IMG/VR virus record: IMGVR_UViG_2617270940_000007
Span: 1 to 7,184 of that record
Reading direction: 5' to 3' (one strand)
Length of the DNA: 7,184 bases
Source: a virus
Lineage: Duplodnaviria > Heunggongvirae > Uroviricota > Caudoviricetes
This document shows, in pieces, positions 1-7,184 of the stretch. The number at the start of each line of letters is the position of its first letter. Within the stretch, counting starts at the first letter, position 1. Position numbers and translations under genes: made by a program. The notes beneath the pieces are model-generated. The model had not been told where the DNA came from. It was given only the letters and a program-made list of their open reading frames with translations, and ran no database searches.

Positions 1-65
1 AACCAATATCACTTAAATAAGTGATAGTCTTAATACTAGTTTTTAGACTAGTCATTGGAGAGCAG

Positions 66-431
66 ATGATTGATGTCTTAGGACCGGAGAAACGCAGACG
101 GCGTACTACACAGGAAAAGATCGCTATTGTTCAGCAGAGTTTTGAACCGGGAATGACGGTCTCCCTTGTTGCCCGGCAACACGGTGTGGCAGCCAGCCAG
201 TTATTTCTCTGGCGCAAGCAATACCAGGAGGGAAGTCTTACTGCTGTGGCCGCAGGAGAGCAGGTCGTTCCTGCCTCTGAACTTGCTGCTGCCATGAAGC
301 AGATTAAAGAACTCCAGCGCCTGCTCGGCAAAAAAACGATGGAAAATGAACTCCTTAAAGAAGCCGTTGAATACGGGCGTGCAAAAAAGTGGATAGCGCA
401 CGCGCCCTTATTGCCCGGGGATGGGGAGTAA
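66..431 (+). CDS. insC: IS2 transposase OrfA (InsC), 121 aa, helix-turn-helix DNA-binding subunit
   Basis: ORF-track protein [40 protein letters not shown]... matches IS2 InsC as I recall it; chosen start is the ATG at 66 rather than the ORF-track upstream extension at 21. Confidence 0.9.
383..389 (+). other. Programmed -1 ribosomal frameshift motif A_AAA_AAG of IS2 (orfA to orfB)
   Basis: Heptamer aaaaaag at 383-389 in the insC frame (A-K-K-W) exactly where the insD frame opens; A6G slippery sites are the established mechanism in IS3-family elements. Confidence 0.75.
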
Positions 432-1294
432 GCTTAGTCAGCCGTTGTCTCCGGGTGTCGCGTGCGCAGTTGCACGTAATTCTCAGACGAACCGATGACT
501 GGAAAGATGGTCGCCGCAGCCGTCACTCAGATGATACGGATGTGCTTCTCCGTATACACCATGTTATCGGAGAGCTGCCCACGTATGGTTATCGTCGGGT
601 ATGGGCGCTGCTTCGCAGACAGGCCGAACTTGATGGTATGCCTGCGATCAATGCCAAACGTGTTTACCGGATCATGCGCCAGAATGCGCTGTTGCTTGAG
701 CGAAAACCCGCTGTACCGCCATCGAAACGGGCACATACTGGCAAAGTGGCCGTGAAAGAAAGCAATCAACGATGGTGCTCTGACGGGTTCGAGTTCCGCT
801 GTGATAACGGAGAAAAACTGCGAGTCACGTTCGCGCTGGACTGCTGTGACCGTGAGGCACTGCACTGGGCAGTCACTACGGGCGGCTTCGACAGTGAAAC
901 AGTACAGGACGTAATGCTGGGAGCGGTGGAACGCCGCTTCGGCAACGAGCTTCCGGCGTCTCCAGTAGAGTGGCTGACGGATAATGGTTCATGCTACCGG
1001 GCTAATGAAACACGGCAGTTTGCCCGGATGTTGGGGCTTGAACCGAAGAACACGGCGGTGCGGAGTCCGGAGAGTAACGGCATAGCAGAGAGCTTCGTGA
1101 AAACGATAAAGCGTGACTACATCAGTATCATGCCTAAACCAGACGGGTTAACGGCAGCAAAGAACCTTGCAGAGGCGTTCGAGCATTATAACGAATGGCA
1201 TCCGCATAGTGCACTGGGTTATCGCTCGCCACGGGAATATCTGCGGCAGCAGGCCAGTAATGGGTTAAGTGATAACAGGTGTCTGGAAATATAG
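389..1294 (+). CDS. insD: IS2 transposase OrfB (InsD), DDE catalytic domain; expressed as InsCD fusion by -1 frameshift
   Basis: 301-aa ORF in the -1 frame relative to insC, overlapping its 3' end; GTG start at 389 lies inside the slippery heptamer; stop TAG at 1292-1294 inside the right inverted repeat. Confidence 0.9.
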
Positions 1295-1305
1295 GGGCAA
1301 ATCCA
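1265..1305. repeat. IS2 right terminal inverted repeat (IRR)
   Basis: Terminal ~41 bp ending ...tggaaatataggggcaaatcca; the matching left repeat lies outside the window, so pairing cannot be verified here. Confidence 0.6.
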
Positions 1306-1679
1306 CCTACTGCCATTACCCACACTTTCATCATTTCACGTAAACGAAGAGAAAAGCGCACCTGCCATTACTCCATACACGGAGAAGAACAATCACCAAA
1401 ACGACGGGAACAACCCAGACGAAAACACAGAGAAGAACCACCTCAAGAAGAACGAAACCACATACGCCGGTAGAGAGTACAAACCACCCATTTCACCCAC
1501 AGGAATAGTCGCCGTATTGAGCGTTATCAGAGAGAAGGTTTATGCCCACATAAGAGAGAAAATTCGAGGGAGGTATAAGTGGGAAGGGGAAGAGGGGTAT
1601 CGCTACTTTTTCCGTATAAATTCAAGCCATAGTTTTCGTCCCCCGTAACGTCCCTATCCACCCCTTCGGTCAGCCTTCG

Positions 1680-1830
1680 GGCCATCCAGGGAAAAGGCCA
1701 TGTCCCTTTTCAGGAACGGGAGCGTCGCCGCAGGGAAAAGGCTGGAGGTTTTCAGGGAAACGGTGGGAATCCCGCTGTACGAACCGGGAAAAGGCTGGCT
1801 GCCGGTCGGGAAACGGGTACATCCCGGTAC
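1680..1830. repeat. GC-rich array of ~6 degenerate direct repeats (core GGGAAA(A/C)GG, ~22-bp period); iteron-like or protein-binding array
   Basis: Units cagggaaaaggc (~1687), caggaacggg (~1711), cagggaaaaggc (~1731), cagggaaacgg (~1753), ccgggaaaaggc (~1784), cgggaaacggg (~1807); no credible ORF across it. Confidence 0.5.
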
Positions 1831-2134
1831 AGAGTGAGGGACGACTGCGGGAGCGGTGCGGGAAATCTTCGGGAGTGCGCCTTACTCTTCACTCGCCTGA
1901 AAATCGCGGGGGAGTGTCATTCCCTCTCGTGCAGCTACTGGACTCCAGTCTGCCAGACCATCATCGGGTCTCAAGCGATTTCAGTAGGTTTTCGGGGAGA
2001 AGAAAATTCTGCCCACCAGCCCCGCGGCGCGCGTAGAGCAGAATATCGTAAATACTGGCTCCCGTGTCGTTCCCGGATATTCACTGCCCAGCCTGGCTTT
2101 CCCGACATAAAATCCTTTTTCGCCTTTGTCTTAT

Positions 2135-2170
2135 TGCGATAATAACACCAATAAGTAAACAACATATTTA
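2135..2170 (+). promoter_or_regulatory. Promoter module A: extended -10 (TGcGATAAT) followed by degenerate AAACAA-N-ATTTA operator-like element
   Basis: ttgcgataataacaccaataagtaaacaacatattta aligns with modules D (4651-4686) and E (5135-5170); lies ~30 bp upstream of RBS gagga and ATG 2202. Confidence 0.4.
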
Positions 2171-2201
2171 GACGTTATAGAAACGAAGTGAGGATGAAGA
2201 G

Positions 2202-2418
2202 ATGATTAAGATGCCTGTGACGGTTGAGGTGTGGGGCGTGGATTCCCTGGCTGAGTGTCTGGATGCAGTGGGGCCGGAGTTGTACCGCAAGTTGTGGTCG
2301 TTCGTCCCGCAGAAGGGGAATCGCCCAAAGGGAAGGATATCTGGCATCTGCTGAGTGAAGATGAAAAGCGGGAGCTGGTGGACGCGGTACACAGCGAGTT
2401 CCCGGAGGACGAAGATTA
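2202..2418 (+). pseudogene. Small ORF (~72 aa if repaired) split by an apparent frameshift near 2331-2336; hypothetical protein
   Basis: RBS gagga 8 nt before ATG 2202; frame 0 gives MIKMPVTVEVWGVDSLAECLDAVGPELYRKLWSFVPQKGNRPKG then stops at 2352-2354; the -1 frame continues KDIWHLLSEDEKRELVDAVHSEFPEDED to TAA ~2416-2418. Both halves look protein-like. Below the ORF-track length cutoff. Confidence 0.3.
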
Positions 2419-2510
2419 AGAGTGAGGTCACCAGCACGGTGGCTTTTGTCGCTATTAACCTCCGGGGCAGCGCAGCACCGTAACGATATACTCTGTGGCC
2501 GTTTTCTTAC

Positions 2511-2548
2511 TGGTATTGTTTACGCAATTCAGAAAACAACATGTTTAA
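2511..2548 (+). promoter_or_regulatory. Promoter module B: extended -10 (TGgTATTGT) plus AAACA-aca-TGTTT palindrome in the 5' UTR
   Basis: ctggtattgtttacgcaattcagaaaacaacatgtttaagga; near-identical in layout to module C (2992-3037); immediately precedes RBS aagga and ATG 2559. Confidence 0.5.
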
Positions 2549-2558
2549 GGATTGCTTT

Positions 2559-2888
2559 ATGTTTGCAAATATCGACATCAACCAAATCAAGAAAATGACT
2601 CAAAAAGAGTTTGACCAGTTTTATGAGTTAGAAGGTTGGTCTTCCACGCTGATCAATTCGCGCTGGGTGCTTGAGCTGATGACTCGTGATGATGCTCCTG
2701 CTTTGATTATTTGCGACATGGGTGAAGATGCTGACTTTATGGATATGAGCGAATTTTGTGTGGACACATACAACCGCAGCCAGAAGTACTACTTCACATG
2801 CGATAGCGAGAATGACGTGATTTCTAAGCTCTATCTTCACCTTGTCCAGCATTGGGACGTGCAGGAATTCCTTGAGTTATTCGCGTAA
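2559..2888 (+). CDS. Hypothetical small acidic protein, 109 aa (cassette gene 1)
   Basis: ORF-track 2541..2888; start moved to ATG 2559 because 2541 lies inside the operator palindrome and 2559 has an aagga RBS at suitable spacing; followed by a hairpin at 2898-2920. No recognisable family. Confidence 0.6.
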   Translation: MFANIDINQIKKMTQKEFDQFYELEGWSSTLINSRWVLELMTRDDAPALIICDMGEDADFMDMSEFCVDTYNRSQKYYFTCDSENDVISKLYLHLVQHWDVQEFLELFA

Positions 2889-2897
2889 GCCCAACCA

Positions 2898-2925
2898 AAG
2901 CCAGCACCGCCTGCTGGCTTAACTT
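2898..2925 (+). terminator. Hairpin (aagccagc-accgcct-gctggctt) with weak U-tract; putative terminator of gene 1
   Basis: 8-bp inverted repeat 10 nt after the stop codon; downstream tract ttaacttctc is only moderately T-rich. Confidence 0.4.
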
Positions 2926-2991
2926 CTCTGTAGCCGTAGGGAAGAACCACCTTTAGATAATTCATGTGCCTGAGCAATATGCTTTGTAGCC

Positions 2992-3037
2992 GTTTTTACA
3001 CTGGTATTATTTACGCCATTGAGAAAACAATTTGTTT
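2992..3037 (+). promoter_or_regulatory. Promoter module C: extended -10 (TGgTATTAT) plus AAACAA-t-TTGTTT palindrome in the 5' UTR
   Basis: gccgtttttacactggtattatttacgccattgagaaaacaatttgtttacgg; homologous to module B over ~50 bp; precedes RBS ggag and ATG 3049. Confidence 0.5.
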
Positions 3038-3048
3038 ACGGAGTAGTG

Positions 3049-3360
3049 ATGAATACTTCATTGGTGCTGGGTCTTGCTGAAGGCCAGGAGAGAAAAGAAA
3101 AACCAACCTTAATGGGGCATCTCACATTGCTGGATATCGTAGCGAATGGGACTTCTATCCGTCTGTTTCGTGAAAAAGCCATTACCTTCGACGCGGGCAA
3201 TTTTACGCGCTATGTGATGGTAGTTCGTCGCCGGCGTGGAAGAGGGTGGATGTCGGTCCAGAAAATGTGGCCAGAGGACCAGCTTGAACTGGCGCTGATG
3301 GAAGCTAACCGTGTCGCCCAACAAGAGATCCAACGAGCGTCTGTTCAGGCGGTAGCTTAA
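3049..3360 (+). CDS. Hypothetical protein, 103 aa (cassette gene 2)
   Basis: ORF-track 3019..3360 begins at a TTG inside the operator; ATG 3049 preceded by ggag is the likelier start; Rho-independent terminator follows. No recognisable family. Confidence 0.55.
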   Translation: MNTSLVLGLAEGQERKEKPTLMGHLTLLDIVANGTSIRLFREKAITFDAGNFTRYVMVVRRRRGRGWMSVQKMWPEDQLELALMEANRVAQQEIQRASVQAVA

Positions 3361-3394
3361 ACATGTGCAAGCAGTAGTTAGTCGAATGTACGAC

Positions 3395-3424
3395 AGCCCC
3401 GCCAATCCTTCGGGGCTTTTTTGT
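3395..3424 (+). terminator. Rho-independent terminator (agccccg - loop - cggggct + TTTTTT)
   Basis: GC-rich 7-bp stem with ccttcgg-type loop followed directly by a six-T run, 35 nt after the gene 2 stop. Confidence 0.7.
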
Positions 3425-3449
3425 ATTGTAAGTACTTACTTATGATAAT
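3421..3449 (+). promoter_or_regulatory. Sigma70-like promoter (TTGTAT - 17 bp - GATAAT) with a perfect 12-bp palindrome GTAAGTACTTAC in the spacer
   Basis: -35 TTGTAT at 3421-3426, -10 GATAAT at 3444-3449, spacer 17 bp; palindrome at 3428-3439 overlaps the spacer (operator-like); AT-rich leader then strong RBS aggag 6 nt before ATG 3482. Confidence 0.5.
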
Positions 3450-3481
3450 AAAATTAAAAATTAAACAATAAGGAGAGTGAA

Positions 3482-3877
3482 ATGACCGTTAAACGCGAAA
3501 ATCTGACCCTGGATATGTATTATGCATCAGAGACGGAAAATGGAGACAAAGTTGCAAAAATTACAATTGTGCTACGCGATAATGCCTCCGGCGAAGAAGT
3601 TCACACCAGTACCTTAACTCGCACCGGCGAGGCGACAAAGGGGAAATATTCGGTGCGTTACCAAAGCATCAGTAATGCTTCTGACCCTTTACTGATAAAA
3701 CTGGAAACTCATTTCCGTGGCGCGGATCAGACGTTGTTTGAAAATTTGATGAAAAAGGTCGATACGGTTTATACATCGAGTTTAAATACCAATAGTACCT
3801 GGATGGGACAACACGGTCTGCGAATAATCTCCGGCGAAAAGATCGACACCATTGTCCCTGAAAGCGTATTCGCTTAA
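3482..3877 (+). CDS. Hypothetical protein, 131 aa (cassette gene 3)
   Basis: Strong RBS aggag at 3471-3475, 6 nt before the ATG; own promoter and own terminator; no recognisable family. Confidence 0.65.
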   Translation: MTVKRENLTLDMYYASETENGDKVAKITIVLRDNASGEEVHTSTLTRTGEATKGKYSVRYQSISNASDPLLIKLETHFRGADQTLFENLMKKVDTVYTSSLNTNSTWMGQHGLRIISGEKIDTIVPESVFA

Positions 3878-3886
3878 TCCTCTTTG

Positions 3887-3916
3887 AATGGCGCGTAAAC
3901 CGCGCCATTTTCTTAT
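3887..3916 (+). terminator. Rho-independent terminator (aatggcgcg-taaac-cgcgccatt + T-rich tract)
   Basis: Perfect 9-bp inverted repeat 10 nt after the gene 3 stop, followed by ttttcttatg. Confidence 0.65.
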
Positions 3917-3921
3917 GTCCG

Positions 3922-3936
3922 ATAACAATTTGTTTT
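3922..3936 (+). promoter_or_regulatory. Operator-like palindrome AACAA-t-TTGTT (copy F of the conserved motif) upstream of gene 4
   Basis: gataacaatttgttttctg matches the core palindrome of modules B-E; the -10 context differs (GATAAC abuts the palindrome), so the promoter assignment is less certain. Confidence 0.35.
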
Positions 3937-3994
3937 CTGCCTTATCTGATTTGTGAAAATGATTTCACTGAAGCAACTTAATAAGGAAACCATC

Positions 3995-4369
3995 ATGGGA
4001 CTTGATATATATATCGAGACGCAGCCTAAAAACGATCTGAATAACGAGGCATCCAGAAAGCAGGTTGCTTACTTCCGTAAGTTCAATGCGCTCGTTGGGT
4101 GGATGGAGCGCAACGTAGGTGAAGTCGAAAATTGTGAGCTTTTAGAATTAACGATGAATGACATTTGTTTTCTGAAGGCTCATTTGATGCACATAAACGA
4201 AAGTAATTGCGAAGAGTACTTGCCTACCCAGGAAGGTTCTTTCTTCGGCAGTCAGGAGTACGATGAAGGTTACTGGCATGATGTGGGGGAGTTGAAAGAG
4301 ATTGTGGAAGATCTGATTAAGAACCACGACTTTCACAATAATAGACTGACCTTCTGCGCCTGGTGGTAA
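3995..4369 (+). CDS. Hypothetical acidic protein, 124 aa (cassette gene 4)
   Basis: ORF-track 3953..4369 starts at GTG with no RBS; ATG 3995 has aagga 7 nt upstream; stop TAA overlaps the start of the next small ORF (taaatATG). Confidence 0.55.
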   Translation: MGLDIYIETQPKNDLNNEASRKQVAYFRKFNALVGWMERNVGEVENCELLELTMNDICFLKAHLMHINESNCEEYLPTQEGSFFGSQEYDEGYWHDVGELKEIVEDLIKNHDFHNNRLTFCAWW

Positions 4370-4371
4370 AT

Positions 4372-4515
4372 ATGGGCGATTTCAAGAAACGCCTGAAGGA
4401 GAGAGCCGAGATGGTCAGAAAGCGAAACGCCTCTTCTGTCATAAGATACGCAAGGCAGTTTAGTCGCAACAACAAATCAGTTGAGGAAAAGATCCTTAGC
4501 GTAATCGGGCGATAA
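4372..4515 (+). CDS. Small basic ORF, 47 aa (or 34 aa from internal ATG 4411 with strong RBS aaggagag); possible coupled partner of gene 4
   Basis: MGDFKKRLKERAEMVRKRNASSVIRYARQFSRNNKSVEEKILSVIGR; start overlaps the upstream stop; internal ATG at 4411 has a strong SD at 7-nt spacing; Lys/Arg-rich; followed by hairpin 4521-4544. Below ORF-track cutoff. Confidence 0.3.
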   Translation: MGDFKKRLKERAEMVRKRNASSVIRYARQFSRNNKSVEEKILSVIGR

Positions 4516-4520
4516 TTATT

Positions 4521-4544
4521 AAGGCCACCAGCATTGGTGGTCTT
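4521..4544. repeat. Hairpin repeat copy 1 (aaggccacca-gcat-tggtggtctt) carrying a Chi octamer on the minus strand
   Basis: 10-bp arms with one G:T position, 4-nt loop; flanked by ttaaatgac; near-identical element at 4992-5015 with inverted loop; ccaccagc (complement of Chi GCTGGTGG) at 4525-4532. Confidence 0.6.
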
Positions 4545-4650
4545 AAATGACTTTTAATAACCGAAGGTTAGTTTGAAACCTGGCTATCAACTTCCAGAAC
4601 CTTTCTTGTGTATTCAGCCTGTATTAACTTCTTTTATGTCTTATCTACAC

Positions 4651-4686
4651 TGCGATAATTACACCAACAAGAAAACAATATGTTTA
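4651..4686 (+). promoter_or_regulatory. Promoter module D: extended -10 (TGcGATAAT) plus AAACA-ata-TGTTT palindrome in the 5' UTR
   Basis: tgcgataattacaccaacaagaaaacaatatgtttacgc; homologous to modules A and E; followed by RBS gagga (4693-4697) and ATG 4705. Confidence 0.5.
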
Positions 4687-4704
4687 CGCAGTGAGGATAT
4701 GCTC

Positions 4705-4986
4705 ATGACTGATTTCACCATTACCCCTAAAGCACAAAATGTATTCCTTGAATCATGGCTGGACTTGCCGGAAACAGAACAGCAAGAAATGGATCATGTG
4801 GAATATGACGAGCAGGTAAGCACGCGATTCTTCCACTTTGAGGGCTGCGTTTACGACATTGCCAACTTCATGCGAGATGACCGCTTCCCTGAATGGCACG
4901 CAAGCTATCCACTAAACGCCTTCGCCATGCTGATGATCCGTGTGGATGATTCAGGGGATACCATCGACATCGGTCTGCTCCACTAA
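4705..4986 (+). CDS. Hypothetical small acidic protein, 93 aa (cassette gene 5)
   Basis: ORF-track 4573..4986 would run through the promoter/operator; ATG 4705 lies 7 nt after gagga (ATG 4699 is too close to the SD). Protein MTDFTITPKAQNVFLESWLDLPETEQQEMDHVEYDEQ... is Asp/Glu-rich. No recognisable family. Confidence 0.6.
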   Translation: MTDFTITPKAQNVFLESWLDLPETEQQEMDHVEYDEQVSTRFFHFEGCVYDIANFMRDDRFPEWHASYPLNAFAMLMIRVDDSGDTIDIGLLH

Positions 4987-4991
4987 AGAGT

Positions 4992-5015
4992 AAGGCCACC
5001 AATGCTGGTGGCCTT
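4992..5015. repeat. Hairpin repeat copy 2 (aaggccacca-atgc-tggtggcctt) carrying a Chi octamer on the plus strand
   Basis: Perfect 10-bp arms; loop atgc is the reverse complement of the copy-1 loop gcat; GCTGGTGG at 5004-5011; followed by ttaaatgac as in copy 1. Confidence 0.6.
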
Positions 5016-5116
5016 AAATGACCATCCTGTTTTCTGCAGGCTAAAAACACCAACCTCTTACCTCCAGGCAACCGACAAACCCACCTGTTCCCGTCCGGCT
5101 ACCGCAACTTTCCACT

Positions 5117-5170
5117 TTGACGCCTTATTCGTACAACGATAATTAACACAAACAAGAAAACAATTTGTTA
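5117..5170 (+). promoter_or_regulatory. Promoter module E: TTGACG -35-like, cGATAAT -10, then AAACAA-t-TTGTTA palindrome in the 5' UTR
   Basis: ttgacgccttattcgtacaacgataattaacacaaacaagaaaacaatttgttatttacg; homologous to modules A and D; RBS aagga (5179-5183) 7 nt before ATG 5191. Confidence 0.5.
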
Positions 5171-5190
5171 TTTACGATAAGGAATTAATC

Positions 5191-5673
5191 ATGAATTTTA
5201 TCGCTACTGTAAACGCACCCGCACATGGCAATATCGCTGTAACGTTCTCTGACATTGAAAAACGAGTACTTGGTGCATGGCGCGACAATGAGACGGTAGA
5301 ACTGTCAGCACAAGAAAAATGCATTATTGCACGCGACATCATTGGCAATCGTCGTTACTCGCGGGTATTTGAGAAAGCATATGTGGTAAATTCTGGATTC
5401 GGAACGTTCGTCTTTCCGGTGCGCTCCGGGCGATTCTGCCAGTCCAAGCTGATTGAGTTCGCTACGCAGATTTCTGTCTGGATTAAAACTCAATCGTCGT
5501 TCAAATTTTCCGACGATGAAGCAGTATCGCAGGGGATGCGGATCGCCAACAATGCAATAAAATGCAAAAACATTACGTATGCCGCTGGCGTTGACACATG
5601 GAAACTGTTTTGCGCTAACTTTATGCTGAATGTATACGCAAGCAACCGCATCCACATCCTTGATGGCGTGTAA
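5191..5673 (+). CDS. Hypothetical protein, 160 aa (cassette gene 6)
   Basis: Good RBS, own promoter module, and a hairpin terminator immediately downstream; no recognisable family. Confidence 0.65.
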   Translation: MNFIATVNAPAHGNIAVTFSDIEKRVLGAWRDNETVELSAQEKCIIARDIIGNRRYSRVFEKAYVVNSGFGTFVFPVRSGRFCQSKLIEFATQISVWIKTQSSFKFSDDEAVSQGMRIANNAIKCKNITYAAGVDTWKLFCANFMLNVYASNRIHILDGV

Positions 5674-5676
5674 CTG

Positions 5677-5706
5677 AGAAGAGGGCCAGAAACGGCCCTT
5701 TCTCTA
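5677..5706 (+). terminator. Rho-independent terminator (agggcc-agaaac-ggccct + tttctct)
   Basis: GC-rich stem 4 nt after the stop codon, followed by a T-rich tract. Confidence 0.6.
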
Positions 5707-5716
5707 TAGCCACCAG

Positions 5717-5900
5717 CTGCCGCAGGGAAATTTTCAGAAACGGCGAGGAACGCATTCATGAGCCGAAGGGAAACGACCATGAAATTTTCTGGAAACGGCG
5801 GGGGGCGCCTTTATGTAGAAAACTGAGCGGGAGAAACCCGGAATCGCGCCAGAAATTGCGTAGCGGCGCTGGGGCAGCGCTGGTGGGGTTTCAGCCCCTG
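5717..5900. repeat. Second GC-rich repeat block (GGGAAA / GAAACGG units), homologous to the 1680-1830 array
   Basis: gccgcagggaaa...ttttcagaaacggcg matches gccgcagggaaaaggctggaggttttcagggaaacggtg in array 1, as if with a ~10-bp deletion; shared gggccatccag motif (1677-1687 and ~5892-5902); Chi octamers at both edges (5710-5717 minus strand, 5879-5886 plus strand). Confidence 0.45.
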
Positions 5901-6088
5901 GGCCATCCAGATAGCTTTCGCTATGTGATTATGTGAATCCGTGGGTAAATCACTGTAAGCGCGTACACGTTGCCCAACGTGGCAATCATATGCGAGCGGA
6001 TACAAAACAACACAAAGAGCCGATCCGCGCCGACAAATAAATGCGGATCACATAGCAAGACTAAAAGCCAATGATTAACCATACTCTA

Positions 6089-6109
6089 TAGCGCAATATA
6101 ACGCGTTTT
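6089..6109. repeat. Hairpin (taacgcg-ttttaag-cgcgtta)
   Basis: Perfect 7-bp inverted repeat in an AT-rich intergenic region; member of a local family of GCGC-stem hairpins. Confidence 0.4.
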
Positions 6110-6216
6110 AAGCGCGTTAATGTGTTAAGTAATGGGTATGTACTGACAAGGATATAAAAGCGCGTCTATGGCGTTATTTTGGTGCTTATTTTTATGTTGT
6201 TGGAGCGAGTTAAAGA

Positions 6217-6246
6217 CAATAAAAAACGCGCCAATGATGGCGCGTT
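6217..6246 (-). terminator. Hairpin (aacgcgcc-aatgat-ggcgcgtt) followed by a T-run on the minus strand; second of two tandem minus-strand terminators
   Basis: Perfect 8-bp stem; on the minus strand the stem is followed directly by TTTTTT (plus-strand aaaaaa at 6221-6226). Confidence 0.5.
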
Positions 6247-6265
6247 ATGGTGGGAGTATTGGAAA

Positions 6266-6290
6266 CGAAAAAAGCGCCCATAGTGGGCGC
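6266..6290 (-). terminator. Rho-independent terminator of the 76-aa minus-strand gene (gcgccca-tag-tgggcgc + TTTTTT)
   Basis: Perfect 7-bp stem 6274-6290, followed on the minus strand by six T; lies 7 nt past the stop codon (6297-6299) of the 6297..6527 gene; the same 17-bp palindrome recurs at 6547-6563. Confidence 0.7.
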
Positions 6291-6296
6291 TCGATT

Positions 6297-6527
6297 TTAT
6301 TTGTGTAAACTAATTTTGAATCCCATTTCTACAAACGCTTTTAACATTAAAAATATATCAGCGTCATTCACGTCTGCTTTTTTTCGCTCCTGGTCGTTCA
6401 ATAAGTCAATTTTGCGCGTTGTTTCATTTATAAACTCGACTGCGCGCCCAGCGATCCCAGCGATCCCAGCGATGCGATTAACATAATATTCATTATGGAC
6501 GTTAACGCCAGCGATAAGAACAAACAT
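6297..6527 (-). CDS. Hypothetical small protein, 76 aa, containing an in-frame (IAG)x3 tandem repeat
   Basis: Minus-strand ORF with strong SD aaggag 7 nt before the ATG; bracketed by two identical 17-bp hairpins (6274-6290 and 6547-6563); terminator downstream. No recognisable family. Confidence 0.55.
   Translation of the reverse strand: MFVLIAGVNVHNEYYVNRIAGIAGIAGRAVEFINETTRKIDLLNDQERKKADVNDADIFLMLKAFVEMGFKISLHK
6447..6473. repeat. Perfect 9-bp tandem repeat (cccagcgat)x3 inside the 76-aa gene
   Basis: Three head-to-tail copies; on the coding (minus) strand atcgctggg x3 encodes Ile-Ala-Gly x3, so copy-number change would preserve frame. Confidence 0.8.
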
Positions 6528-6546
6528 GATTAAGCTCCTTAAAACT

Positions 6547-6563
6547 AGCGCCCATAGTGGGCG
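6547..6563. repeat. Second copy of the 17-bp palindrome gcgcccatagtgggcgc, between the two minus-strand genes
   Basis: Identical to 6274-6290; sits between the stop of the upstream minus-strand fragment (6578) and the SD/ATG (6527) of the 76-aa gene. Confidence 0.6.
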
Positions 6564-6577
6564 CTATATCCATCTAA

Positions 6578-6837
6578 TTACGCTTTGAAAGCATCAGCCA
6601 GATAGTTATAAAAATCATTTTTAACGAAGCGATATTGCTGTGATCCGTTTTTCGCTGCACCCATTCCTTTGATTTTTTCGACCAGTCCCAGACGTTCGCA
6701 AAGATTGATAAGCTGGTTGGCTTGAGTGTATCCTGCGTCTAATTTTATTTCGTTGGCTTTTTTCGCTTCATTCATTAAATCGAAAACAGCGCCATTGGTG
6801 AACGTGTCGATCTCGTCGTTAATCATATCGATTAATG
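6578..6837 (-). pseudogene. 3' fragment of a gene truncated at its 5' end by IS1 insertion; hypothetical protein, tentatively phage antirepressor-like C-terminal region
   Basis: Minus-strand frame stays open from the ORF-track Met (6826) up to the IS1 boundary (6837) with no stop, so the ORF runs into the IS; the antirepressor resemblance is an impression from memory only. Confidence 0.45.
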
Positions 6838-6892
6838 GGTGATGCTGCCAACTTACTGATTTAGTGTATGATGGTGTTTTTGAGGTGCTCCA

Positions 6893-7168
6893 GTGGCTTC
6901 TGTTTCTATCAGCTGTCCCTCCTGTTCAGCTACTGACGGGGTGGTGCGTAACGGCAAAAGCACTGCCGGACATCAGCGCTATCTCTGCTCTCATTGCCGT
7001 AAAACATGGCAACTACAGTTCACTTACACCGCCTCTCAGCCCGGTACGCACCAGAAAATCATTGATATGGCCATGAATGGCGTTGGATGCCGGGCAACTG
7101 CCCGCATTATGGGCGTTGGCCTCAACACGATTTTACGTCACTTAAAAAACTCAGGCCGCAGTCGGTAA
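6893..7168 (+). CDS. insA: IS1 InsA (transposition repressor / N-terminal part of the InsAB' transposase), 91 aa
   Basis: [91 protein letters not shown]; GTG start at 6893; zinc-finger-like CxxC...CxxC motif. Confidence 0.92.
7144..7150 (+). other. IS1 A6C -1 frameshift motif (insA to insB', gives InsAB' transposase)
   Basis: aaaaaac near the 3' end of insA, the established IS1 frameshift position; the insB' frame continues beyond the window. Confidence 0.7.
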
Positions 7169-7184
7169 CCTCGCGCATACAACC

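Follow-up and report, generated by a model that had tools for sequence, protein, structure and literature searches.

Promoter/terminator cassettes with a dispersed, operator-like palindrome in SSU5/pHCM2-type phage-plasmids

Why does one short palindrome recur in front of small genes along a single viral DNA, and what might bind it? The question is raised by a stretch of 7,184 nucleotides (the window; positions 1 to 7,184 of IMG/VR record IMGVR_UViG_2617270940_000007, Caudoviricetes), for which a preliminary description had reported six intergenic regions of one layout, with an extended -10 element, a palindrome, a ribosome-binding site (RBS) and an ATG. We compared the window with related phages and plasmids and with a published transcriptome of one relative. 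A compact cassette that is typical of SSU5/pHCM2/pMT1-type phage-plasmids appears to be present in the window seven times, and six of these copies carry the palindrome. The palindromes probably belong to an operator regulon carried in mobile promoter/terminator cassettes, through which a repressor encoded by the element would silence promoters of the prophage.

Palindrome modules in the window

When at most one mismatch is allowed, the motif AAACANNNTGTTT (AAACA-N3-TGTTT) has six matches in the window, starting at 2157, 2534, 3025, 3923, 4673 and 5158. Only 0.51 matches were expected from 200 dinucleotide shuffles, none of which reached six. All six matches are intergenic and lie upstream of genes on the + strand. 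The palindrome had been given as AAACA(A)-N1-3-(T)TGTTT; it is indeed present at the six sites, and its precise form is a 13-bp site of two 6-bp halves around one free base (6-1-6), extended asymmetrically by AGA towards the -10. The modules and the genes behind them are as follows, the -10 elements being predicted.

2135-2169, + strand: module A, with extended -10 TGCGATAAT (2135-2143), a 13-nt gap and the degenerate palindrome AAACAACATATTT (2157-2169; right half ...CATATTT); ATG at 2202
2511-2546, + strand: module B, with extended -10 TGGTATTGT (2511-2519), a 14-nt gap and palindrome AAACAACATGTTT (2534-2546); ATG at 2559
2559-2888, + strand: gene B, its RBS AAGGA immediately 3' of the B palindrome
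3002-3037, + strand: module C, with extended -10 TGGTATTAT (3002-3010), a 14-nt gap and palindrome AAACAATTTGTTT (3025-3037); ATG at 3049
3049-3360, + strand: gene C, behind module C
3923-3960, + strand: module D, with palindrome TAACAATTTGTTT (3923-3935), extended to TTGTTTTCT, and then extended -10 TGTGAAAAT (3952-3960); ATG at 3995
3995-4369 and 4372-4515, + strand: gene D and a coupled 47-aa open reading frame (ORF), driven by the predicted module D promoter
4623-4685, + strand: module E, with a decayed remnant of an upstream operator (~4623-4640), extended -10 TGCGATAAT (4651-4659), a 13-nt gap and palindrome AAACAATATGTTT (4673-4685); ATG at 4705
4705-4986, + strand: gene E, behind module E
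5135-5170, + strand: module F, with -10 AACGATAAT (5135-5143, without TG), a 14-nt gap and palindrome AAACAATTTGTTA (5158-5170; TTGTTA); ATG at 5191
5191-5673, + strand: gene F, behind module F

The single layout reported before holds for modules A, B, C, E and F, in which 13-14 nt separate a mostly extended -10 from the palindrome, and a Shine-Dalgarno sequence and the ATG come next, with 18-39 nt from palindrome centre to ATG. The TGn extension is found in four of these five, or in five of six when D is counted. Module D departs from this layout. Here the palindrome immediately follows the putative terminator of the gene before it, with 19 nt to the -10 hexamer further downstream and 60 nt to the ATG, and the -10 is the separate element TGTGAAAAT rather than the 'cgataac' to which it had been assigned. 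The same arrangement recurs at Cyrano 85818 and 93114 and at SSU5 (L001) 490, 3207 and 8550.

An independent repeat search recovered the homology of modules B and C, previously put at ~50 bp, over 66 nt at 82%. Of the homology claimed for A, D and E, the A/E part was confirmed (64 nt at 72%), and D was found to match the other modules in inverted orientation. The repeat search also returned a 24-nt ACACCAACAAGAAAACAAnnTGTT block in five copies along the array. When the stretches 5' of the -10 were compared across all modules, decayed copies of the D-type upstream site became apparent, and the module E orthologues of SSU5 and pMT1 retain both operators, 51 bp apart. Read from these comparisons, the putative ancestral cassette is O2 (AAACAAnTTGTTTTCT), 16 nt, TGnGATAAT, 10 nt, O1 (AGAAAACAAnTTGTTT) and the RBS.

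Distribution over the element and its relatives

The window is composite, with 5.5 kb of phage-plasmid DNA enclosed by the insertion sequences IS2 (1-1305) and IS1 (~6838 to the end, 7184), both identified via their ORFs and terminal sequences. The enclosed segment is collinear, at 98-99.9% identity, with many Escherichia coli 'non-mobilizable IncFIB' plasmids in PLSDB, and shows 81-92% identity with phages SSU5, Cyrano and PhiR41_1 and with Klebsiella phage-plasmids. It is therefore a variable accessory part of an SSU5/pHCM2-type phage-plasmid. Related DNA is present in 783 PLSDB records from Klebsiella, Escherichia, Enterobacter, Yersinia and Salmonella, and in relatives the corresponding region is flanked by a block of small genes and an FljA-like/UvsW/ParB-like block. 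Of the eight + strand genes in the array, each falls into a PHROG family without assigned function or into no PHROG, and none of the eight has a Pfam match. The preliminary description had recognized the array and missed the phage-plasmid nature of the DNA, the role of the modules as mosaic junctions and a second operator-like palindrome, to which we return below.

Enrichment of the motif extends over the whole element. In pTB212, a close relative of 110 kb, 26 matches were found against 4.1 ± 2.1 expected, and ~19 of these carry the extended consensus AGAAAACAAnTTGTTT and are intergenic. Cyrano likewise has ~19 intergenic sites, and all 11 of its perfect matches are intergenic. The Cyrano sites precede the small terminase gene (two sites), parA, the replicative helicase gene, a cobT-like operon, nrdB, a tciA-like gene and several genes of unknown function, as well as the orthologues of window genes B, C, D, E and F, and sites occur at corresponding places in SSU5 and Yersinia pestis pMT1. 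In pMT1 of Y. pestis CO92 (L129/L130), eight AAACAAnTTGTTT sites are intact (including 28498, 28523, 37412, 37904, 37955, 50067 and 89259), and the pair before the terminase gene is retained. A scan of IMG/VR with AGAAAACAANTTGTTT gave many single matches in unrelated contigs, and every multi-match contig that was checked is SSU5-like, including a lineage only ~68% identical in DNA. Elements from Escherichia, Salmonella, Klebsiella and Yersinia share an identical motif. The proposed local regulon of small monocistronic genes gives way to ~15-20 promoters over ~110 kb, including those of replication, partition and packaging genes.

Among 79 unique instances of the site, a -10-like hexamer stands 9-11 nt before the AGA in 41, with a TG in 29 of the 41, and a Shine-Dalgarno-like sequence follows the palindrome within 14 nt in 53. 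Relative to the predicted -10, the site is centred at ~+14, at ~-38, at both positions so that two sites 51 bp apart flank the -10 (Cyrano 93114/93165; SSU5 L001 3207/3258 and 8550/8601; pMT1 37955/37904), or abuts the -10, as at the helicase promoter. The palindrome therefore does not keep the fixed place that had been ascribed to it in every cassette, lying at ~-38 in D and on both sides of the -10 or against it in relatives. The AGA extension faces the -10 in every arrangement. All these positions fall within the stretch that RNA polymerase would cover, ~-40 to +20 of the predicted promoter, and would fit a repressor site. Such variability would fit neither a core promoter element nor an activator site of fixed register.

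The site outlasts the DNA around it. At the helicase and parA promoters of the ~68%-identical lineage, AGAAAACAnnTTGTTT is kept with flanks that are beyond alignment; the conserved part comprises AGAAAACA(A/T)nTTGTTT plus the RBS, and the remaining intergenic sequence is unalignable. The parA promoter of contig L048 has a textbook TTGACC-17-TACCAT arrangement, with the operator 10 nt after the -10. A distant relative from Moellerella has lost both dispersed motifs (18 matches against 7.4 expected, mostly in coding sequence), and a de novo search for repeated palindromes in this element found none. The region upstream of its parA still holds AAGAAAACAATATATTT, a half-conserved copy.

The modules, 65-85% alike over 30-66 nt, also contain the points at which alignments between relatives break off (Cyrano 2161|2531; SSU5 2561|2978 and 3946|4632). 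Cyrano joins 2161, within the A palindrome, to 2531, at the B palindrome, with the central triplet of the hybrid palindrome inverted, and thus has no gene A. SSU5 is without gene B, the junction running through the homologous B and C modules, and also without gene D and the 47-aa ORF (3946|4632), which places the D upstream operator before the E promoter at the canonical 51-bp spacing. Because the cassettes are ~65-85% identical, they would therefore also be sites of homologous recombination, between which small genes are gained and lost.

Gene A (2202-2419) is itself frameshifted in the window, into ORFs 2202-2354 and 2255-2419; its orthologue in pTB212 is intact (72 aa). Its operator, AAACAACATATTT, is the most degenerate of the six. 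Gene A either belongs to a decaying cassette or has been affected by a sequencing error.

Lysogen expression and readings of the palindrome

In the mechanism that we favour, each cassette would run from a terminator hairpin through a sigma-70 promoter (extended -10 of TGnGATAAT type, no good -35) and a leader of ~35 nt to the RBS. The 13-bp AAACAAnTTGTTT with its AGA extension would be the operator for a symmetric repressor, encoded by the element and present in the plasmid-prophage state, that blocks RNA polymerase from ~+14 (O1; A, B, C, E and F), from ~-38 (O2; D) or, in relatives, from both sites 51 bp apart. Element-wide, ~15-20 promoters would be under the same operator, including those of unknown small genes, the replicative helicase gene, nrdB, the cobT-like operon, the parA operon and the small terminase gene, and the cassettes would double as homologous recombination sites for the exchange of small genes. 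The motif, its enrichment, positions and conservation and the mosaic junctions are direct observations, and the silence of the target genes is taken from published data; from these we infer that the -10 elements mark genuine promoters and that the palindrome is bound by a repressing protein.

The one transcriptome found is an RNA-seq data set of E. coli LF82 carrying Cyrano as a plasmid prophage (PMC9928086 S1 Table). With a median of 9.8 for Cyrano genes, those preceded by the palindrome lie at background (5.7-25), and the orthologues of window genes, CYRAN_105, 106, 108, 110 and 111, have values of 12.8, 12.2, 5.7, 6.7 and 25.5 (PMC9928086). The parA operon is the exception among the operator-bearing units (50, 89 and 55), and toxin-antitoxin genes reach 300-600 (PMC9928086). 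Promoters that look constitutive and are silent in the prophage are what the operator of a prophage-state repressor predicts.

Several points weigh against this mechanism. A scan of the window for canonical -35/-10 promoters found none of the modules, and the promoter call therefore rests on the TGn extended -10, with the -10 elements assigned by consensus only. The LF82 values come from a single set of low coverage that is possibly not strand-specific, and most prophage genes are silent in it with or without the motif. In most L1 modules the palindrome adjoins the RBS and may therefore also affect translation.

An action on translation would make the palindrome an mRNA element, a leader ending in ...ACACCAACAAGAAAACAAnUUGUUU by the Shine-Dalgarno sequence that is bound by a translational repressor. 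Under the main layout the palindrome should be part of the transcript, with 1-4 nt between it and the Shine-Dalgarno sequence, and a possible binder, an FljA-family protein, is encoded ~1.5 kb beyond the window in relatives; FljA is an mRNA-binding translational repressor, which in Salmonella binds the fliC leader. However, folding of the predicted leaders does not exceed that of shuffled sequence (z from -0.4 to +0.7), the 5-bp A-U hairpin is marginal, variants of the palindrome are one-sided with compensated changes never seen, and the modules have no Rfam match at E <= 1. Furthermore, the upstream sites (module D and the upstream half of dual promoters) stand in opposite orientation and outside the transcript of their predicted promoter. 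The palindrome is therefore read as a site in double-stranded DNA, and an RNA hairpin or riboswitch-like element was rejected on the grounds of leader folding, Rfam and compensatory changes. Transcript levels are themselves at background, and the FljA-like protein, at 18 in the lysogen, is only 36% conserved in the lineage that has the exact motif, which together make translational control improbable. We regard as hardly more probable the view that conservation of the palindrome merely reflects cassette homology, with units resembling the PeSL cassettes of T4-type phages spread by duplication and gene conversion and the palindrome as passenger or recombination signal. The modules are indeed 65-85% alike over 30-66 nt and contain the mosaic breakpoints, the Cyrano junction falls inside a palindrome with its central triplet inverted, and the element encodes T4-like recombination proteins (UvsW, UvsY, gp32-like and RecA-like). 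Yet in ~68%-identical lineages a 16-bp core is exact where the rest of the module is beyond alignment, both half-sites are symmetrically conserved, and sites occur at promoters of core genes (helicase, parA, nrdB), which are not shuffled cassettes.

The protein that binds might also differ from the one proposed. It is unlikely, though less so than the two previous explanations, that the palindrome serves a lytic-phase switch protein, which would shut off early promoters after induction (from +14) and act positively at the terminase operon, lysogen silence having another cause. The small terminase gene is preceded by two sites and then a terminator-like hairpin with no good -10, and two candidates are at hand: a winged-helix-like 88-aa protein encoded just upstream of the terminase sites, with weak winged-helix/LexA-like matches and a recognition region conserved in the divergent lineage, and a 70-aa protein encoded divergently from the helix-turn-helix (HTH) repressor. 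Both are at background in the lysogen (7.8 and 20), which is consistent with such a switch but leaves the silence unexplained. Promoters with an extended -10 GATAAT would be expected to need no activator, yet in the lysogen they show only background values, and no other operator is present in the window modules. Binding of a host protein of the Enterobacterales, such as integration host factor (IHF) or another nucleoid protein, seems very improbable. The motif is identical in elements from four host genera, and it loosely resembles, with two mismatches, the IHF consensus (WATCAANNNNTTR). Against this stand ~19 sites per 110 kb, the confinement of multi-match contigs to this phage family, a strict two-fold symmetry that is atypical of IHF, and a Moellerella element without the regulon. 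No E. coli regulator is known to us to have this consensus, the boxes compared being those of LexA, Fur, FadR, KdgR, DeoR, Zur, MntR and PhoP.

Repression by an element-encoded protein in the prophage state remains the reading we prefer. The shared operator and co-regulated set of the preliminary description survive in this form as the interpretation that comparative and expression evidence favours most, supported by genome-wide enrichment, conservation, promoter placement, lack of RNA structure and lysogen silence, and amended as to fixed place and scope. No published description of the motif was found in the searchable literature, where the motif string occurs in no paper; one key comparative paper and the pMT1 sequence papers lie outside its coverage. 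Nothing was found on operators or promoters in the SSU5 literature.

The 47-aa ORF of the window (4372-4515; MGDFKKRLKERAEMVRKRN...) encodes a very basic product and follows the end of gene D with TAAatATG spacing. Its Cyrano orthologue, CYRAN_109, has a value of 58 in the lysogen where its neighbours have 6-7 (PMC9928086), which suggests a promoter of its own, or an antisense or small RNA.

Second palindrome, candidate regulators and known systems

Besides the six modules, the array holds a seventh gene (gene X) with a related promoter, and terminator-like hairpins behind its genes. Their positions are:

3425-3468, + strand: gene X promoter, with a different palindrome, ATTGTAAGTACTTACTTA (3425-3442, 'motif 3'), over the -35/spacer, -10 GATAAT (3444-3449) and the left half-site AAACAA (3463-3468)
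3482-3877, + strand: gene X, seventh gene of the array, with the half-site alone at the usual operator distance
2429-2448, + strand: hairpin 3' of gene A, terminator-like by eye, below the threshold of the hairpin scan
2901-2920, + strand: hairpin 3' of gene B, terminator-like by eye
3397-3423, + strand: hairpin and T-run 3' of gene C
3886-3914, + strand: hairpin and T-run 3' of gene X, terminator-like by scan, immediately 5' of the D palindrome
4519-4546, + strand: hairpin 3' of the 47-aa ORF, terminator-like by scan
4991-5017, + strand: hairpin 3' of gene E, terminator-like by scan
5683-5705, + strand: hairpin 3' of gene F

Module E and gene E are bracketed by two of these hairpins (4519-4546 and 4991-5017), one an inverted copy of the other; they show 96% complementarity over 27 nt and have the loops AGCATT and AATGCT. 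It looks as if the E cassette may have been inserted or inverted via the hairpin.

Motif 3, at 3425-3442 in the window, where it overlaps the gene X promoter, belongs to a second dispersed palindrome, TAGGTAAGTnCTTACCTA, with at least 12-25 sites in Cyrano, including some between late genes (L006-L008; for example 22449, 26658, 42604, 67884, 77437, 79652 and 84621). Its core GTAAGnnCTTAC, with at most one mismatch, occurs 12 times in Cyrano against 3.3 expected and 16 times in pTB212 against 3.4; in relatives the motif stands before late genes. The region between the gene of CYRAN_45, an Xre-type HTH protein annotated as 'putative repressor', and its divergent neighbour has a GGTAAGTGCTTAC core that is perfectly conserved in five lineages and belongs to TAGGTAAGTnCTTACCTA. 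Motif 3 is probably the operator of CYRAN_45.

Which protein might bind the AAACAA palindrome itself? Three small DNA-binding-like proteins are expressed in the LF82 lysogen, namely CYRAN_45, CYRAN_117 and CYRAN_29. CYRAN_45 is less likely, its conserved divergent region having GGTAAGTGCTTAC and no AAACAA site. CYRAN_117, which is ribbon-helix-helix-like, is disfavoured because the residues of its predicted DNA-facing strand vary (Y/H/S, A/Q/K) among lineages with an identical motif. An S24 protein, which we read as UmuD'-like against the UmuD sequence, and a ParB-like pair were set aside. The ParB-like proteins are not linked to the motif, and their genes are at background in the lysogen (PMC9928086).

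Tentatively, and at somewhat less than even likelihood, the regulator is the ~120-aa protein of the CYRAN_29 family encoded right after a Walker-type ParA. Two database searches gave 40 relatives, all unnamed, none with a Pfam match and all confined to these elements, and the gene always directly follows that of the small ParA (~220 aa), as in CYRAN_28/29, in L048 (6419-7120 / 6039-6413), in the Moellerella element and in the metagenome contig L135. Members are ~50% identical and share an invariant MGDLAK N-terminus, an SRTMSxEDE segment and an FTRSDVIRAAI helix, together with a basic QGRPTRGK stretch; the remote member beside the metagenome ParA has a KRLTFSLSQ...TRSDVIRAAV pattern. In the AlphaFold monomer of CYRAN_29 (pLDDT 64), residues 1-42 are disordered and helices span 48-60 and 70-84, which might weakly suggest a ribbon-helix-helix pattern whose strand would form only in the dimer. 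The family also has a weak match, below the cut-off, to the aCcr1 cell-cycle regulator family of ribbon-helix-helix proteins. In every lineage examined the CYRAN_29 operon carries the motif at its promoter, and it is the sole operator-bearing unit expressed in the lysogen; an operator at its own promoter together with lysogen expression of the parA operon is as expected for negative autoregulation by CYRAN_29.

Other observations count against this candidate. The fold of the family found no match in Pfam, NCBIfam, PHROGs, the PDB (by sequence and profile) or Foldseek, and hhalign gave no similarity to ParG or omega. Centromere-binding proteins of the omega/ParG type use repeat arrays and not single palindromes, and no repeat array was found near the par operon. 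Moreover, pMT1 has eight intact sites, yet in it a P1-type ParAB has taken the place of the partition module of ParA and the small protein, and no CYRAN_29 homologue is encoded. Because pMT1 is evolutionarily young, its intact sites weigh little as a natural test. In L135, the remote relative from a metagenome, the inverted repeat preceding parA is a different one, so that no covariation test is offered. A wider proposal, which we hold to be doubtful, is that the ParA-adjacent protein acts both as partition adaptor and as global silencer of early and accessory promoters via ~20 palindromes, perhaps as a dispersed centromere, and that a separate HTH repressor uses TAGGTAAGTnCTTACCTA.

Some further features of these elements were observed in passing. 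A third repeat, of inverted TATAC(A/G)GAAGCAGG pairs around an A+T-rich spacer, is absent from the window and occurs at three Cyrano loci, one directly behind the par operon, one in front of CYRAN_80 and one immediately preceding the terminase operators (L006 31157-31213; L007 ~28084-28140, record 78084-78140; record 108342 to 4). The counterpart in the Moellerella element, GCCTAGCTCCCATAGTATTTATATA, differs in sequence and has 8 copies, of which one located pair likewise follows the par operon. A centromere, an origin and a late promoter are possible roles of the third repeat. In the window the gene array is bordered, at 1670-1830 and 5710-5910, by G+C-rich non-coding DNA that contains short repeats, with at least three copies of CAGGGAAA(A/C)GG (1731-1799), two copies of a 38-nt unit 55 nt apart (5723-5815) and a 20-nt direct repeat TCAGCCnnnGGGCCATCCAG (1670-1689 and 5891-5910); these may be iterons, binding sites or RNA. 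A phrog_1513 gene (6578-6826) is truncated by IS1 to the final 82 of its 216 residues. At 188 kb, the plasmid of the nearest record exceeds the typical size of a member, which suggests a cointegrate or a rearranged element. By far the top Cyrano gene in the lysogen is CYRAN_43 (7084 against the median of 9.8; record 40268-40822, - strand; 184 aa, acidic), which adjoins the integrase and repressor genes. Finally, a full-length protein of the FljA family ('repressor of phase-1 flagellin', PF03614, E = 1e-80) is encoded by a conserved gene of these phage-plasmids (CYRAN_114 in Cyrano, SSU5_121 in SSU5), ~1.5 kb past the IS1 end of the window in relatives, and has weak Sm/Hfq-like matches.

The proposed arrangement is closest to known systems of dispersed operators. 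Phage P1 is also a plasmid-prophage, in which C1 operators are dispersed over lytic and accessory promoters, overlapping or just downstream of sigma-70 promoters. In both cases copies of one operator stand at scattered promoters, and here too one protein is proposed to silence many units. The P1 operator, however, is the asymmetric 17-mer ATTGCTCTAATAAATTT and not a 13-bp palindrome AAACAAnTTGTTT, and the present elements are unrelated, siphovirus-type phage-plasmids with a second dispersed palindrome, motif 3, at the HTH repressor gene. Mycobacteriophage L5 likewise has tens of repressor sites dispersed over short intergenic spaces of a temperate phage; its stoperators lack symmetry, point in the direction of transcription and stop elongation inside operons, whereas the sites described here are palindromes linked to promoters. 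Motif 3, found between late genes as well, is closer to stoperators.

Two partition systems provide further parallels. The OB operators of KorB on plasmid RK2 (IncP) are 13-bp 6-1-6 palindromes, TTTAGCSGCTAAA, and KorB is a ParB-family HTH protein and global repressor. The 13-bp 6-1-6 form and about a dozen copies over the replicon are common to both, and global repression by a protein of the partition system would be a further common trait, but the sequence differs from TTTAGCSGCTAAA, and the ParB-like proteins here are silent in the lysogen and not linked to the motif. The second parallel is with omega of pSM19035 and ParG of TP228, small transcriptional repressors that bind centromeres and whose genes follow that of a Walker ParA. 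CYRAN_29 resembles them in its small size, its place after a ~220-aa ParA, a basic N-terminal part predicted to be disordered and a putative strand-helix-helix pattern; the motif stands in its own operon promoter as well as at other promoters, and the half-sites are 7 bp apart from centre to centre, as are inverted omega heptads. It differs in that the palindromes are single or paired where omega and ParG bind arrays of 7-10 repeats, and in the lack of sequence similarity to ParG and omega.

For the cassettes themselves the parallel is the PeSL of T4-type phages, a unit of terminator and strong sigma-70 promoter before small unknown genes, in which the end points of insertions, deletions and replacements lie (PMC2839356, PMC4122927). 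Here too, modules and hairpins are repeated before genes of unknown function and breakpoints fall in cassettes, promoter strength and termination being predicted. PeSLs are found in virulent T4-type myoviruses, whereas the present element is a temperate, SSU5-like, siphovirus-type phage-plasmid. Furthermore, the abstracts of the two PeSL papers mention no operator, whereas a palindromic operator-like site occurs here, also at core-gene promoters outside the variable regions.

Phage-plasmids of the SSU5/pHCM2/pMT1 type are widespread, with ~780 PLSDB plasmids in E. coli, Klebsiella, Enterobacter and Salmonella Typhi and with pMT1 of Y. pestis in the group, and they are reported to carry resistance genes (PMC9600943). 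We found no description in the literature of how lysis, lysogeny and expression are controlled in these elements. With ~20 mapped operator sites, a second candidate operator and a few candidate regulators, the circuit becomes directly testable. The cassettes would explain the exchange of small accessory genes, and with them the PeSL concept, developed for virulent T4-type phages, would come to include a temperate phage-plasmid. If CYRAN_29 is indeed both regulator and partition adaptor, one protein would run both plasmid segregation and prophage silencing.

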